From: a virus
Lineage: Duplodnaviria; Heunggongvirae; Uroviricota; Caudoviricetes
IMG/VR virus record: IMGVR_UViG_2534682338_000010
Coordinates: 1-33,953 of that record
DNA: 33,953 nucleotides
Strand: one strand, 5' to 3'
Both the position numbers and the translations under genes were made by a program. Under the pieces are notes generated by a model that was given only the letters and a program-made list of their open reading frames with translations, made no database searches and had not been told where the DNA came from. Each line of letters opens with the position of its first letter. The first letter of the stretch is position 1. Positions 14,728 to 24,006 of the stretch are shown here, piece after piece.

Positions 14728-15069
14728 TTAACCGCTTCTGAGTTTCTCAAGCAAAGATGGATCAAACATGTTCAGCATTGCCGCTTTACGTTCTTCTTCT
14801 TTCTTGCGTGCAAGTTCTTCCAGTTCTTCTTTAGTTTTAAAGAGTTTTTCTTCTCTAATTAATTGGAATTGGCTAGGCTTGAGTTTCTTTGCAGTTTCAC
14901 GAGTCATTCCTTGTGACGTCATATACATGGAATATTGCAACATCGCATTCTGCATATCATGAAACGCGGGGCTTTGTGGTTCTAAGTAGGTGTCGAAAAT
15001 GTATAATTTCCAAAACAGAGTGATTGGCATATTATCCATTTCATCTTTACTAAGCCCCGATCGCATCAT
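14728..15069 (-). CDS. tail assembly chaperone (T-like partner)
   Basis: 113-aa ORF directly upstream of the tape-measure gene; no good SD; -1 frame relative to the preceding chaperone ORF. Confidence 0.45.
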   Translation of the reverse strand: MMRSGLSKDEMDNMPITLFWKLYIFDTYLEPQSPAFHDMQNAMLQYSMYMTSQGMTRETAKKLKPSQFQLIREEKLFKTKEELEELARKKEEERKAAMLNMFDPSLLEKLRSG

Positions 15070-15098
15070 TTGCCGAAAATAGAAATTCAGAAGCGGGT

Positions 15099-15407
15099 TT
15101 ACTTTACCTCGTTTTCAATTACTGCCGGATCTTGCATCAATGATGCTTGAGCAACCAAACCGATTAATTCACTACGGACGTTAGTATACAGTGCCTTAAC
15201 TTGTTCCATAGATTCAAATACTGGTTTACCGTCTTCATCTTCAATACAACGAAGAATCGAACGTTCATCACGGTCTTCTTTATCAGTATTGAAAACATGT
15301 TCGTTAAATTCTTTTACCGACATAGGGCGAGCATAGAAAGTAAATCCACCGATGGTTAAAGATTCACGTTTCGGAGAAAGGGCTTTCAGCATTTCATTAA
15401 TATTCAT
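15099..15407 (-). CDS. tail assembly chaperone (G-like)
   Basis: 102-aa acidic ORF at the canonical position upstream of the tape-measure gene. Confidence 0.5.
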   Translation of the reverse strand: MNINEMLKALSPKRESLTIGGFTFYARPMSVKEFNEHVFNTDKEDRDERSILRCIEDEDGKPVFESMEQVKALYTNVRSELIGLVAQASLMQDPAVIENEVK

Positions 15408-15971: not shown

Positions 15972-15999
15972 AAAAAAGCCCCACCATTAAGGCAGGGCT
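15972..15999 (-). terminator. intrinsic terminator (homologous to the one after the capsid gene)
   Basis: minus-strand hairpin GCCCUGCC-UUAA-GGUGGGGC with a G-U pair, followed by UUUUUU. Confidence 0.65.
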
Positions 16000-16004
16000 T
16001 ATAA

Positions 16005-16124
16005 TTAATCTTTAGCCTTGCGGCTTCGTTTAGCTGTGGCTTTCGCCGTAACTTCTTCTACTTCTGGAATCACCACCGCTTCATGTTCCGGCTGTGGTTC
16101 CGGTTCGGGAAGTTCTTCGAAAGT
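16005..16124 (-). other. in-frame post-TGA extension of the putative tail-tube gene (39 codons then TAA)
   Basis: frame 0 after TGA (16125-16127) is open: TFEELPEPEPQPEHEAVVIPEVEEVTAKATAKRSRKAKD; homologous to the capsid extension. Confidence 0.45.
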
Positions 16125-16601
16125 TCAAGCGGCAGTATTGAAGATTTGCTGTTTCAGCGGAGCACCATCAACGGCAAAGGTAAACTCTTTAGTTACCACT
16201 TCTTCATCGCCACCGTTCATAGCAACTTTAGAAATGAAGCCGTTGTACGCAATGCGAATACCAGTCTGTTTTCCGGCGTCAACATAATACTCTACTTTGA
16301 TCTGGCAGCGAGTGCCGTCTTCGGCAGCTTTTGCGAGCTTCTCGTGTACCGCATCACCTGGGATGTAGTTAACGGTCAGAGTCAGATCTTCAACGTTCAG
16401 TTTACCAACCAGCTTACGGTTATACTGAGAAGAATACGATTTGACTTCTACCGTCCCGCGAGACAGTGAATATTCAGGAAAACCAGCACACTCTTTAATT
16501 TCTTCGTATGCTTCATCAGCAAGATCGGTGTTAGTGGTATCAGCGTGATAGAACAGACTTACCAGACCACCAGTAAAAATATCTTTAAATTGTTGAGACA
16601 T
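16125..16601 (-). CDS. putative major tail tube protein
   Basis: 158 aa; size typical of siphovirus tube proteins; followed by a strong terminator; ends with TGA. Confidence 0.5.
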   Translation of the reverse strand: MSQQFKDIFTGGLVSLFYHADTTNTDLADEAYEEIKECAGFPEYSLSRGTVEVKSYSSQYNRKLVGKLNVEDLTLTVNYIPGDAVHEKLAKAAEDGTRCQIKVEYYVDAGKQTGIRIAYNGFISKVAMNGGDEEVVTKEFTFAVDGAPLKQQIFNTAA

Positions 16602-20271: not shown

Positions 20272-21105
20272 TTAATACTCACCGAAATCGATCCGGTCCG
20301 TCTTAGCCACTGCGCCAATTTCGCTAGGTGTCGGTTTCTCATTGGTGGAATATACCTTGATCCATTCAGAACGACCGTTTTCCTGAATATTTCGGACACG
20401 TAAACGCGGTGCGCCAGAAGTATTACAGGTTAATTGCCATGCGCCATGCTCATTAGCTTGAAGGTGAATTAACGATGTATCAGCACCATAAGGGTTAGTG
20501 CTAGCCGTTCCTTTGTAGGTTACGAAACGGTTTCCTGCTAATGCCTCGCTATCAATACCGCCCGTGAATGGATGTACACCTGCACCCAAACCAAAATCAC
20601 CCTGACGTAAGATCCGGCCTTCGGTAGCAATACCCCTTGCCAAAATCCCGCCATCTGGTTCAAGTTTAAATTCCAGTGTTACAGCTTTGTTATCACTACC
20701 ACGGGTTTTATGTGATGTGACGTAAGCATCGAATATACAAAAGTACCCTGTGTTAGCAGCACTATAGCCAGAGTTCACAACATAGAACATACGGAAGCGT
20801 AAAGGTGTTTTATCCTCTACCGCTTTCATCAACATTGCTTGATGTTCATCGTCAAGAACACGGTTTAACGTGAGTGTTGTCGGTTCCAGTCTACGATAAC
20901 CAGCAAGTTTCCCCGTAGCGTCCTGATCGTACTCTTCCAGAGTTTCAATCTCTGTGGATTCGGTTAGCGTAGGGAATGCTGCGATGTTCTCAATAGAACT
21001 AAAGCTAGGATCGAAAAAGTCGACCTGATTGTCTATCTGGTTAGAGATCGACACTTCAACATGCGACCCCGTGAAAATGTCTAAGTTATCTTGTGTAATA
21101 TTCAT
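20272..21105 (-). CDS. tail/neck structural protein (possible tube or fibre-anchoring protein)
   Basis: 277 aa; C-terminus shares the motif KPTPSEIGA with the 1178-aa fibre. Confidence 0.5.
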   Translation of the reverse strand: MNITQDNLDIFTGSHVEVSISNQIDNQVDFFDPSFSSIENIAAFPTLTESTEIETLEEYDQDATGKLAGYRRLEPTTLTLNRVLDDEHQAMLMKAVEDKTPLRFRMFYVVNSGYSAANTGYFCIFDAYVTSHKTRGSDNKAVTLEFKLEPDGGILARGIATEGRILRQGDFGLGAGVHPFTGGIDSEALAGNRFVTYKGTASTNPYGADTSLIHLQANEHGAWQLTCNTSGAPRLRVRNIQENGRSEWIKVYSTNEKPTPSEIGAVAKTDRIDFGEY

Positions 21106-21114
21106 TATTACCCC

Positions 21115-21537
21115 TTAAAAACGCGCTAGATAAGAAAATTTAAGGCTAAGTGTCCCAACGATACCACCATCACTAGAATCATCGTCATAATCGGTATTAG
21201 AAGCTACTGGAGTGATATCTGAAATTGAGAAGCCCAAATCTTTAAAACGTGGGTTATCCGGCTGAATCTGGATTATCTGGCAAATACCCTCATGAATTTT
21301 CGTTTCATGAATCTGAGAATATAACTGCATTTCGATAACGCATTCAGCTTGCATTGCATTACCGCCACGGACCCTAGTGTAAGTCTCATTCATTCCGGTG
21401 ATCCAACAAACCACGTCATCACTAAAGCCTTGCTGAGTTTGTTCTACGTTTAAAGCCAGACCTAAATCTTGTTCGATAATATCCTGCAAGGCGCGTTTGA
21501 TTTTCAGTCTAGGCATATTATTAACGGTAGCGAGCAT
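21115..21537 (-). CDS. head-tail joining / tail completion protein
   Basis: ATG at 21537 preceded by AGGGGG with 6-nt spacing; overlaps the upstream gene end by 17 nt. Confidence 0.45.
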   Translation of the reverse strand: MLATVNNMPRLKIKRALQDIIEQDLGLALNVEQTQQGFSDDVVCWITGMNETYTRVRGGNAMQAECVIEMQLYSQIHETKIHEGICQIIQIQPDNPRFKDLGFSISDITPVASNTDYDDDSSDGGIVGTLSLKFSYLARF

Positions 21538-21811: not shown

Positions 21812-21841
21812 AGTTACCCCCTTTATGGAGTATTTACATAC

Positions 21842-21868
21842 AAAAAAGCCCCACCGTTAGGCAGGGCT
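21842..21868 (-). terminator. intrinsic terminator after the capsid gene
   Basis: minus-strand hairpin AGCCCUGCC-UAAC-GGUGGGGCU followed by UUUUUUG, starting 2 nt after the tandem stops. Confidence 0.65.
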
Positions 21869-21870
21869 AA

Positions 21871-22002
21871 TTATTATTCTTTAGTTTTACGTTGTTTTTT
21901 AACTGTGGCTTTCGCCGTAACCGTCTGAGATTCTTCTTCCTGAGATGGAATCAGATTTTCTTCCCCCAAATCGGGGGAAGGTTCAGATGGTTCTACGTTA
22001 GT
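21871..22002 (-). other. in-frame post-TGA extension of the capsid gene (42 codons then TAA-TAA)
   Basis: frame 0 after TGA (22003-22005) is open: TNVEPSEPSPDLGEENLIPSQEEESQTVTAKATVKKQRKTKE. Confidence 0.45.
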
Positions 22003-24006
22003 TCATTCAGCGGAGATGTGAAGAACTTTCAGAGCTTCCGGCTGAACTACGGTGAAGTCCAGGTCTACCCAGATACGCGGAACGATAGCAGACTGTGCGC
22101 GGTAAGTGGTGTCGTCCATATCCAGTTCCAGACCACCCCATTCACCGATCATGATACCGGAGAAATCACCCAGAACGATGTGGTCTGCCGGAATAACGCC
22201 AGAAGTAACTACATCGTAACCAGCCAGTTTGCCGTTTTCGATGATATAACCGGAAACGCCGTTATCTTTCAGGGTAGATTCCAGTTCAGCAGCAGTTGCA
22301 CCGCTCATTGCAAACTTGATGGACTGTGCCGGAACGCCAGCGTCGGTCAGTGCTGCAATTTCTTTCAGGAAGTCTTTGTAGCTAAAAGCGGCTTTCTTAG
22401 TAACGCGACCACCGTCTACCAGTTGCTTAACCAGACCTTTCGGACCTCGAGTATTATCTTTGTCAGACAGAATCAGTTGTTCCAGTTTGATGCGAACAGC
22501 TTTGTTAATATGATCAGTGATCAGGGTAGCAATATTCGGAACAGTTTTCAGAGACTGACGGCTGATCGGGTTGCCACCAGCAAACGTCTTAGGAGCCATT
22601 TTCACGTTTGCAAATTCAGCTTTGCTTTCCGGTGCAGCACCGTTTTCATCAACGAAACCGAAAGCATCAACGCTGGAAGTAGTCATTTTCGGTACAGCAA
22701 TCGGAGCATTCAGACCAGACAGAACAGTCACACCCAGACGACCCAGAACAGACTGCGGAAGCAGCATTTCTACATAGGATTCGGTCAGCAGTTTTTCGTC
22801 GGTTACAGCAGTCAGAGTAGCTTTGGTGTTACCATCAGCAGCAGCACGCAGAGCAGCAGCCGGAACGAATACAGAGCCACCGCGAGCAGCACGACCACGC
22901 TGCATTGCAGCACCAGCAGCCATTGCAGAAAACTCGGCTTCGTTAGCACCCAGAGCTTCACCATCTACCAGGGAGCGAATTACGTTGTTCAGGTCAAAAG
23001 TTTTTTCCATTTTAGAGTCCTTAATTTGTTCGTTATTACGTTGAGCAGTAGCGATTTTATTTAGTGTCTTAGTGCGGAATGCTTCCGGCGTCATGTCTTT
23101 AATTGCTAATGCGCGTTTCAATTCTTCGTCATCAATATTTAGTTCGCGTGCAATTTCGCGAATTTCTAATTCATCTTCTTCGGAACGTTCAGCCACTTCC
23201 TCGGTTTTTTCTTCTTCATCCGGAGCGGCTTCACGTTCTTCTTTTACTTCTTCTGCTTCCCGAACAGTTGAACTATCATCATCAACACTTTCAGGATGTT
23301 CAGCGTCTTTTCCGTCTTCGAGATTTTCATCTTCTTTATTCTCTTCAACTTGGCGCTCTTGAGTTTCTTCAACTTCCGGTTCTTTATTTTCTTCTACCGG
23401 AGTTTCTTCAACCTGAGCGGATTCTTGTTCTTCTTTGATTTCTTCGATTTGTTCTTTAGTCATATCGCGTTTAGCCTCCAAATTAACTGTGATAGTATTT
23501 AGAGAGCGATTTAAACCGACAGAATCATCGGCAGGGACCGTCACAAATGAAATTTCAAAAGGCGCCCACTTAGTAACAATCAATTGCCCTTTGGTGTAGT
23601 CGATGTGATATTCTTTAATGTCATAACCGACAGAAATTTTTTCCATCGTACCTTCAATGACTTTATTGCGAATATCATTAGCCAAAGTGCCATGCTTAGA
23701 GAATTTAACCAGAGCACGACCTACGTTATCCGCATCGATTCGAGCGTTACAAACGACACCAATATGATTATCGAAATTATGATTGAACAGCAACGGAGCG
23801 TTATTATTCAGACGGGACAGATCAACCGCTTCCGGTGTATGTACCAGAATTTCATCTAATACCACCATTTCTTGATTTTGCTCATCCCAGAATTGGCGCT
23901 GATAAGGCTGTTCACTGGAGAAAGCAATTTCAAATTCGTATTGATCGTTATGCCCTTCGTTAATAACTCCACCGTAACCGTTAAGATCGCGGCGAAATTT
24001 AAGCAT
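22003..24006 (-). CDS. prohead protease / acidic scaffold (delta-like) / HK97-fold major capsid protein fusion
   Basis: 667 aa: N-terminal about 170 aa protease-like (ends EISFVTVPAD), about 150 aa extremely Glu-rich linker, C-terminal about 330 aa capsid-like. Confidence 0.75.
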   Translation of the reverse strand: MLKFRRDLNGYGGVINEGHNDQYEFEIAFSSEQPYQRQFWDEQNQEMVVLDEILVHTPEAVDLSRLNNNAPLLFNHNFDNHIGVVCNARIDADNVGRALVKFSKHGTLANDIRNKVIEGTMEKISVGYDIKEYHIDYTKGQLIVTKWAPFEISFVTVPADDSVGLNRSLNTITVNLEAKRDMTKEQIEEIKEEQESAQVEETPVEENKEPEVEETQERQVEENKEDENLEDGKDAEHPESVDDDSSTVREAEEVKEEREAAPDEEEKTEEVAERSEEDELEIREIARELNIDDEELKRALAIKDMTPEAFRTKTLNKIATAQRNNEQIKDSKMEKTFDLNNVIRSLVDGEALGANEAEFSAMAAGAAMQRGRAARGGSVFVPAAALRAAADGNTKATLTAVTDEKLLTESYVEMLLPQSVLGRLGVTVLSGLNAPIAVPKMTTSSVDAFGFVDENGAAPESKAEFANVKMAPKTFAGGNPISRQSLKTVPNIATLITDHINKAVRIKLEQLILSDKDNTRGPKGLVKQLVDGGRVTKKAAFSYKDFLKEIAALTDAGVPAQSIKFAMSGATAAELESTLKDNGVSGYIIENGKLAGYDVVTSGVIPADHIVLGDFSGIMIGEWGGLELDMDDTTYRAQSAIVPRIWVDLDFTVVQPEALKVLHISAE

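Follow-up and report, generated by a model that had tools for sequence, protein, structure and literature searches.

A candidate UGA-A readthrough module shared by the capsid and tail-tube genes of an Escherichia coli prophage family

Minor, C-terminally extended forms of major structural proteins are known from several phages. Phage Q-beta produces the extended coat protein A1 through a leaky UGA that is read through at ~5% (PMC7026636), and A1 is tabulated there as a low-copy component of the virion (table 1 of that article, which cites Weiner and Weber 1973). In tailed phages, extended capsid and tail proteins are made by frameshifting, as for gene 10B of T7/T3, in Lactobacillus phage A2 (head and tail), in Listeria phages A118, A500 and PSA (cps and tsh), and for SPP1 gp17.1* (PMC5009743; PMC5221750; PMC8718954). 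In the lambda tail protein gpV, the tube domain spans residues 1-156, and a C-terminal Ig-like domain (157-246) projects outside the tube (PMC8718954). Here, we describe a stretch of 33,953 nt (IMG/VR record IMGVR_UViG_2534682338_000010, Caudoviricetes; hereafter "the window", whose coordinates are used throughout), a siphovirus-type E. coli/Shigella prophage in which the fused protease-capsid gene and the tail-tube gene both end in UGA-A and are both followed by an in-frame extension. Comparison of these gene ends across relatives suggests, with a probability that we put at about 60%, that leaky decoding of UGA-A by tRNA-Trp yields minor extended capsid and tail-tube subunits.

The capsid gene end had been singled out by a sequence-only reading of the window, which proposed a leaky TGA followed by 42 open codons encoding an acidic Pro/Glu linker with a basic tail. 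The TGA, the open frame, the TAA-TAA that closes it, the terminator 2 nt further on, and a hairpin inside the extension all lie where that reading had placed them, and the predicted peptide fits its description, with an acidic/Pro linker, a TAKAT core, and a basic tip. For the comparison, we gathered 61 capsid copies, namely the window, one RefSeq twin, 32 IMG/VR contigs, 12 metagenome contigs, and 15 further complete E. coli genomes, some of these E. coli genomes being picked for lowest identity or for match lengths that are not multiples of three. The 29 tail-tube copies came from the window, 23 IMG/VR contigs, and five E. coli genomes, which brings both loci to 90 copies. The capsid gene end is organized as follows:

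22006..24006 without the stop, minus strand: fused S78 prohead protease - acidic scaffold - HK97-type major capsid gene, 667 codons (precomputed PF04586 and PF05065 matches on the identical protein, P0001)
22002..22005, minus strand: UGA-A tetranucleotide, the proposed leaky gate (TGA 22005-22003, +4 A 22002), with TGA-A in 61/61 capsid copies
21877..22002, minus strand: in-frame 42-codon capsid extension TNVEPSEPSPDLGEENLIPSQEEESQTVTAKATVKKQRKTKE, with acidic/Pro linker, TAKAT core and basic tip, its frame open in all 61 relatives
21961-21979, minus strand: hairpin UUCCCCC-GAUUU-GGGGGAA, starting 23 nt after the TGA (8 bp, 21960..21980, when the C21980-G21960 pair is included)
21903..21921, minus strand: most conserved core GTTACGGCGAAAGCCACAG (V-TAKAT), which holds the mini-hairpin GGC-GAAA-GCC and is common to the tail-tube copy
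21871..21876, minus strand: tandem stop TAA-TAA closing the extension (TAATAA in 57 copies, TGATAA in 2, TAATAATAA in 2)
21841..21868, minus strand: intrinsic terminator, a 9-bp G+C stem (21868-21847) and a T-run, beginning 2 nt past TAA-TAA

Taken as a single sequence, the capsid extension is not beyond chance (nine of 30 genes in the window are followed by at least 31 open codons), and it is the relatives that supply the case.

The window itself holds a second such gene end. Its 30 tabulated genes stop in TAA 26 times and in TGA four times; among the 20 genes of the structural operon, just two use TGA, the capsid and tail-tube genes, both as TGA-ACT, and the rest use TAA. The features at the tail-tube gene are these:

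16128..16601 without the stop, minus strand: major tail (tube) protein gene, 158 codons, matching phrog_158 'major tail protein' (E = 1.7e-20)
16124..16127, minus strand: second proposed UGA-A gate (TGA 16127-16125, A 16124), TGA-ACT in 29/29 tail-tube copies
16008..16124, minus strand: 39-codon extension of the tail-tube gene, TFEELPEPEPQPEHEAVVIPEVEEVTAKATAKRSRKAKD, in frame and homologous to that of the capsid gene, open at 36, 39 or 41 codons in 29/29 copies
15999..16007, minus strand: stops closing the tail-tube extension, TAA-TTA-TAA
15970..16000, minus strand: intrinsic terminator, a 10-bp stem and a T-run, near-identical to the one behind the capsid extension

An alignment of the two modules extends from the TGA to the T-run, and the terminators behind them (21868-21847 and 16000-15976) are the two strongest on the minus strand between 8500 and 28100. 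When the 16-mer core was searched for in IMG/VR, the module context was found only behind capsid (22) and tail-tube (22) genes, the remaining ~20 matches being unrelated and due to chance. The DNA of one capsid tip (KRGRKPKE, contig L036) is nearly identical to that of tail-tube tips, which indicates that the modules exchange sequence between copies. In L161 (NZ_CP035865, 700-780), another terminator (GCCATCC-TTCG-GGGTGGC-T6) and another gene replace the usual terminator and the Gp38-like gene right after the extension stops; since the terminator was swapped and the extension kept, the extension belongs to the gene and not to the terminator.

The open frame is conserved across the relatives. 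TGA is followed by A (ACT or AAT) in all 61 capsid copies, and this TGA-A is kept despite differing capsid ends (..ISAE, ..HISE, ..IGGE, ..MGEE, ..ISAD, and a divergent C-terminal domain type ending ..TVVQKKVD). Frame 0 remains open in every copy, at lengths of 27, 28, 33, 42, 43, 44 or 45 codons, and the extension stops directly abut the terminator TTAGCCC in 61/61 copies, whereas frames 1 and 2 contain 1-7 stops in every haplotype, in varying number. These lengths require at least six indel events, all multiples of three (3n); with at least two more at the tail-tube locus, 8/8 indels are 3n, for which the chance expectation is (1/3)^8 = 1.5e-4. In the adjacent 62 nt between the terminator and the next ATG, at least five indels of 1-2 nt have accumulated (in the terminator loop, T-run, spacer, and G-run), none of them 3n, so that extensions and flanking non-coding DNA differ significantly (Fisher p = 8e-4). 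The non-3n length differences that we had targeted all fell within this 62-nt stretch, and the loop and stem of the capsid terminator likewise vary among relatives by compensatory changes and 1-2-nt indels. Examined as plain terminators, both sites have the G+C stem and the U-run, and the spacer between stop and terminator does not evolve as non-coding DNA. Relatives with frameshifts or stops in the extension frame, which the sequence-only reading had named as evidence against it, did not turn up in any of the 90 copies, despite pS (synonymous divergence) of ~0.2, 35 capsid haplotypes, and at least eight indels. Taken together, these patterns support the view that the capsid extension is not a chance open frame.

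Other coding explanations for the open frame were considered and rejected. An independent small gene within the extension would lack an ATG or GTG with a Shine-Dalgarno sequence, and its in-frame TTG or CTG is not kept across variants. Coupling through an ATG overlapping the TGA (ATGA) would give an open reading frame (ORF) of just 2-7 codons, which is lost where the last codon is GAC. An antisense ORF of 390 codons (21892-23064, plus strand) starts inside the extension, runs through the capsid gene, and is broken in some haplotypes; it is probably spurious, as strongly codon-biased genes typically show such frames. No suppressor tRNA was found by ARAGORN. Its sole call, a 91-nt tRNA-Glu(ttc) at 21260-21350 (plus strand), lies antisense inside a 156-aa head-completion gene and is probably a false positive.

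The composition of both extensions is clearly that of coding sequence, and in frame 0 only. We scored them as a log-likelihood ratio (LLR) per codon, under a codon model derived from the 20 structural genes of the phage itself. The capsid extension reached about +0.51 to +0.52 in frame 0, against -0.45 to -0.51 and -0.68 to -0.78 in frames 1 and 2, and the tail-tube extension reached +0.46 to +0.49 in frame 0; for reference, real 42-codon gene windows average +0.50 (5-95% range 0.27-0.75), and true intergenic stretches score -0.9 to +0.07 across all frames. The observed LLR was attained by 0/5000 shuffles of the capsid extension and 1/5000 of the tail-tube extension. Substitutions at the tail-tube locus point in the same direction: the ratio of non-synonymous to synonymous divergence (pN/pS) is 0.41 in frame 0 of the extension vs 0.76 and 1.19 in the other frames (gene body 0.13), and synonymous events make up 8/17 in frame 0 (p = 0.03) vs 1/17 and 4/17 elsewhere. 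In the short capsid type, 6/12 events are synonymous (p = 0.04). Neither extension peptide had a match among 5.8 billion predicted proteins, which does not discriminate between hypotheses but does mean that the gate was never swapped for a sense codon in sequenced relatives, and that annotation pipelines miss the extensions.

We favor leaky decoding as the explanation. Most ribosomes would terminate at UGA-A and release the normal subunit, and a few percent would insert an amino acid, most likely Trp through the near-cognate tRNA-Trp, and continue for 27-45 codons to the tandem stop that fronts the terminator. The product would be the normal subunit with a short, probably disordered tail, in which an acidic linker of Pro and Glu leads to a T-A-K-A-T core and a tip rich in Lys and Arg, and the predicted junctions with Trp read LHISAE-W-TNVEPSEPSPDLGEENLIPSQEEESQTVTAK for the capsid and IFNTAA-W-TFEELPEPEPQPEHEAVVIPEVEEVTAK for the tail tube. 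UGA-A might have been a context with background readthrough only, a possibility that the sequence-only reading had allowed for; as summarized in PMC5289835 (citing Engelberg-Kulka 1981), UGA with A at +4 is instead a context prone to misreading by tRNA-Trp in E. coli. UGA is also the leakiest stop codon (PMC5289835; PMC7026636), and UAA is preferred in highly expressed genes (PMC5289835). Because the capsid and tail-tube genes are among the most highly expressed, where UAA would be the normal choice, we count their use of TGA in favor of a leaky gate. In K-12 reporters, UGA readthrough is ~2% at 37 °C and ~4% at 25 °C and is modulated by tRNA-Trp, release factors RF2/RF3, and cyclic AMP (cAMP) (PMC10570021).

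At 2-4% readthrough, ~10 subunits per T=7 head would carry a tail, along with a few per tail tube if the tube is lambda-like, with ~190 subunits (~192 in PMC5009743). The T number is taken from the solved capsid protein 8gta_A, which the C-terminal 335 aa of the capsid protein match with E = 3.7e-27 in an alignment reaching both C-termini, and whose seven chains we read as a T=7 asymmetric unit. HK97-fold shells, T7 gp10 among them, serve for display through their C-termini, and by analogy with these and with the gpV Ig-like domain, the tails would be external. A single-sequence AlphaFold model had a confidence (pLDDT) of 33 and was not used, so that exposure of the capsid C-terminus is argued by analogy alone. 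The role we favor, again by analogy, is a weak electrostatic contact of the basic tip with polyanionic surfaces, of the cell or otherwise, comparable to that of accessory Ig-like domains.

Several observations weigh against this reading. Its support comes from comparing sequences, and from these we infer production of the extended protein, together with the readthrough level, the inserted residue, exposure on the outside, and the role of the tails. Many natural E. coli RF2 alleles are more efficient than that of K-12, so that readthrough may be below the reporter values. The absence of stop gains is just mildly surprising (2.7 expected, P = 0.07), the stops of neighboring genes are also mostly invariant, which makes invariance of the TGA weak evidence on its own, and many of the 3n indels sit in GAA/CCG-GAA repeats, which could favor 3n slippage. 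In the capsid extension, pooled pN/pS is 0.74, similar to frames 1 and 2 (for comparison, it is 0.33 over the final 100 codons of the capsid gene and 0.27 in the gene that follows), and in the long capsid type the synonymous events, 8/32, equal the neutral expectation. dN/dS (non-synonymous to synonymous substitution rates) between the paralogous capsid and tail-tube copies was uninformative and did not discriminate frames. The conservation and dN/dS check proposed by the sequence-only reading thus gave a mixed outcome, with dN/dS weak to neutral overall: the preserved frame, the coding composition, and the tail-tube copy bear it out, and the capsid copy, which evolves without frame preference, does not. 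So selection would act on the open frame and its composition rather than on a particular sequence, a pattern that fits a disordered linker and that a peptide-independent role would produce as well.

There is also constraint at the RNA level, which accounts for part of the conservation and further tempers the case for a translated tail. Folding of the 186 nt that lead from the end of the capsid gene across the terminator is far stronger than that of shuffles (minimum free energy (MFE) -55.3 kcal/mol, z = -4.4). Compensatory changes are seen in three small hairpins, and include non-synonymous pairs: the mini-hairpin GGC-GAAA-GCC, present in all types, is replaced by GGA-GAAA-UCC in a single capsid copy (L039) and a single tail-tube copy (L160), where two non-synonymous changes produce the rare T-E-K-S-T variant; in GRPP tails GGUGG...CCACC becomes GGCGG...CCGCC; and a further hairpin changes from UUG..UAG to UCG..UGA. 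Such features would be expected if the 80-135 nt between stop and terminator formed a non-coding structured 3' untranslated region (UTR), that is, an RNA element (mRNA stabilizer, processing site, or small RNA derived from the 3' UTR) of which duplicates follow two highly expressed genes, the open frame being a by-product. The near-neutral pN/pS of the capsid copy and the core 19-mer, kept at the nucleotide level between the two copies, fit this explanation too. However, it leaves unexplained why 8/8 indels are 3n next to non-coding DNA with 1-2-nt indels, why frame 0 has coding composition and is closed by tandem strong stops exactly at its end, why TGA-A is exclusive to these two genes of the operon, and why pN/pS of the tail-tube copy is lowest in frame 0. 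In addition, Rfam returned no match at or near threshold, even at E up to 10, and the hairpins are not conserved between variants. We consider a purely non-coding element unlikely, though still a serious alternative.

The hairpin at 21960..21980, which the sequence-only reading had taken for a readthrough stimulator, is not supported in that role. Its folding is marginal relative to shuffles (z = -1.8, with 11/200 shuffles folding as well), and it is found without change in the long variants but not in those of 27/28 codons. In the latter, an unrelated hairpin of 11 bp, capped by a GAAA loop, lies 13 nt past the TGA (z = -5.5) and shows a single compensatory change from U-A to C-G, and tail-tube copies have no significant hairpin. 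Since the hairpins differ between variants, a single conserved stimulator is not supported, and a downstream RNA stimulator is not required for leakiness of the Q-beta type. Hairpins 13-25 nt after the UGA in the capsid variants could also be thought of as selenocysteine insertion sequence (SECIS)-like elements directing selenocysteine to the UGA, as bacterial SECIS elements lie immediately downstream of it (PMC7026636). The two capsid hairpins nevertheless differ in sequence, loop, and distance, the tail-tube copies provide no counterpart, and the Rfam search was as empty for this as for other RNA families. The loops GAUUU and GAAA are moreover unlike that of E. coli fdhF, and we regard selenocysteine insertion as very improbable indeed.

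A different use of translation, in which the peptide would be irrelevant, is suggested by the position of the closing stops. Ribosomes that read through would reach stops abutting the terminator stem and hinder formation of the hairpin, thereby tuning transcription into the downstream head-completion and tail genes. This would be in line with a frame that is open, with stops directly before the terminator stem, in all 90 copies, with the weak constraint on amino-acid identity in the capsid copy, and with the location of both modules at the operon's only two strong terminators. Yet with readthrough of a few percent, the terminator could be masked by no more than a few percent of lead ribosomes, little in comparison with ordinary terminator leakage, and the L161 arrangement has a new terminator behind an unchanged extension. 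The tails, besides being coding-like in composition, keep a linker and a basic tip even where they are otherwise unrelated (tips QRKTKE, ERKTKAK, VGRPPKAK, GRKPKE and RSRKAKD), which points to selection on the peptide. Terminator tuning as the reason for the extensions is, in our view, quite unlikely.

The wider family suggests how stop-gated tails may have arisen. Capsid homologs of ~45% identity have short Pro/Ala/Glu/Lys tails fused directly to the body and followed by a terminator (...YEK-GTPAEAPAEAKAGK; ...GTPAEAKAAKQ), and the tail-tube homolog of Escherichia phage DCP80 (PQ671644.1) ends in ...GSGEKPTEEPIV. From these comparisons, an architecture of body, flexible tail, strong stop, and terminator looks ancestral, with the E. 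coli clade having UGA-A at the junction of body and tail. The extensions might then be decaying relics, i.e., ancestral fused tails silenced by a nonsense TGA and not yet eroded, a scenario for which the fused tails of these relatives and a coding-like composition with near-neutral pN/pS can be cited. A relic would, however, be expected to have broken somewhere in the ample diversity described above, and identical silencing of two genes (TGA-ACT at the same junction) is unlikely unless the gated module is itself the selected unit. Decay is improbable on these grounds, and leaky decoding remains the reading that we prefer. As a separate observation, two capsid genes of ~45% identity, in DCP80 (L001, 5900-6100) and in L055 (~2070-2200), end in TAA, with the -1 frame open from GAA-AAG or GAA-AAA; these -1 frames run to a point just short of the terminator and encode tails rich in Ala and Lys (..K-DSINLMERAISPMSLGAEALDAAPVKKSKSASG, ..K-TSLRKAKAKAKAKAETAE), of a kind that is fused in frame in sister contigs. 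Such tails may be reached by a -1 frameshift, or the arrangement may reflect decay; this is a lead from two sequences.

The prophage in which the modules reside is common in E. coli. Its capsid protein (P0001) is identical to a protein of E. coli H120, with hundreds of E. coli, Shigella, and Salmonella entries of 665-670 aa at 95-99% identity, and the region is present in 54 of 5,426 complete E. coli genomes. Megablast and blastn searches of 50,697 phage records gave no cultured-phage match to the region, and a scan with one genome per species found no relative. Related fused protease-capsid genes occur in phages R4C, phiHAP-1, VP882, and FoX. The structural operon lies on the minus strand and starts with the terminase (28048-26144), a small connector-like protein, and the portal (25563-24052), continues with the fused capsid gene (24006-22003), head-completion genes, a 1,178-aa tail fiber, and the major tail (tube) protein (16601-16125), and closes with a Gp38-like adhesin, a G/T chaperone pair, and the tape measure. 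The tail-tube gene matches lambda-type tail-tube Pfam models only below threshold, and its RefSeq relatives are annotated 'phage tail tube protein'.

A few side observations were made in this operon and its relatives. Upstream of the tail fiber, a 277-aa protein (20272-21105, minus strand) matches phrog_158 over its N-terminal 150 aa (E = 1.4e-9) and would be a second tube-like protein; the stop of its gene varies between TAA, TGA, and TAG among relatives, and is the sole nearby stop to vary. The chaperone pair (14728-15407, minus strand; a TAC-like protein of 102 aa and a T-like protein of 113 aa) immediately precedes the 809-aa tape measure, at the usual site of the conserved G/GT -1 frameshift. 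In L039 (NZ_CP042903, 4624-5473), a GIY-YIG nuclease gene is found where relatives carry the long tail-fiber gene. The DCP80 record, filed as a 141-kb member of the Straboviridae (T4-like), contains at positions 1700-22500 an entire head-tail module of siphovirus type (terminase, portal, fused protease-capsid, tube, G/T chaperones, and tape measure) with homology to this prophage, and is an unusual genome or possibly a chimeric assembly.

In the full-text literature searched, whose coverage is incomplete and does not amount to proof of novelty, we found no case of in-frame stop readthrough in tailed-phage structural genes. The sequence-only reading had suggested that such capsid extension might be undescribed for tailed phages, which agrees with this search as far as in-frame readthrough is concerned and is too broad otherwise, capsid and tail extension by frameshifting being well known (PMC5009743). 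If confirmed, stop-codon readthrough would join frameshifting, until now the sole documented recoding route to minor extended head and tail proteins in tailed phages, and one gated tail would be shared by, and exchanged between, capsid and tail-tube genes. Functional UGA readthrough that is natural and evolutionarily conserved is rare in E. coli, and this would be an example; how many subunits of each virion are decorated would vary with host fidelity (RF2 allele, tRNA-Trp level, temperature, cAMP). As gene callers never annotate these extensions, similar cases elsewhere would be invisible to standard annotation. A more ambitious proposal would treat the UGA-A gate, acidic linker, basic tip, and tandem stop as one portable readthrough cassette that a widespread family of E. 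coli prophages passes between its capsid and tail-tube genes. The cassette would then constitute the first programmed in-frame readthrough in structural genes of tailed double-stranded DNA (dsDNA) phages, decorating head and tail sub-stoichiometrically at a level set by host UGA fidelity (through temperature, cAMP, or growth state), and perhaps coupling translational leakiness to downstream transcription; we think this rather unlikely to hold as a whole.

An ordinary gene end resembles these sites in having a strong terminator behind the most highly expressed structural genes, but it puts a strong stop beside that terminator, whereas here a weak UGA-A is followed by a coding-like, frame-preserved spacer of 81-135 nt. 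Q-beta offers the closest parallel for the proposed decoding step: the host is the same, the capsid gene ends in UGA, proposed to be leaky here, and an in-frame extension follows. The Q-beta stop is also followed by A. Q-beta is, however, a single-stranded RNA levivirus whose extension folds into a domain of ~200 aa and is required for infectivity, while the prophage is a tailed dsDNA virus, known here from sequence alone, with a low-complexity tail of 27-45 aa on two structural genes. The frameshift systems differ in that a -1 or +1 shift at a slippery site leads into another frame, whereas the prophage extension is in frame 0 with the other frames closed. Many of their extensions (not that of T7) are Ig-like or FN3 domains, compared with 27-45 residues rich in Pro, Glu, and Lys here, too short for an Ig fold. 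In lambda gpV, T5 pb6, and YSD1, accessory domains are folded, constitutively fused, and present on every subunit, unlike the short, probably disordered, and stop-gated appendage proposed here; the 158-aa tail-tube protein does have about the length of the gpV tube domain, so that a C-terminal appendage would sit where the Ig-like domain of gpV projects. As in A2 and the Listeria phages, head and tail genes are both affected, the proposed recoding sites lying where the major capsid and major tail genes end and presumably giving two products with a common N-terminal body. By analogy, the prophage module would resemble Q-beta A1 in its mechanism and A2 or PSA in its biology.

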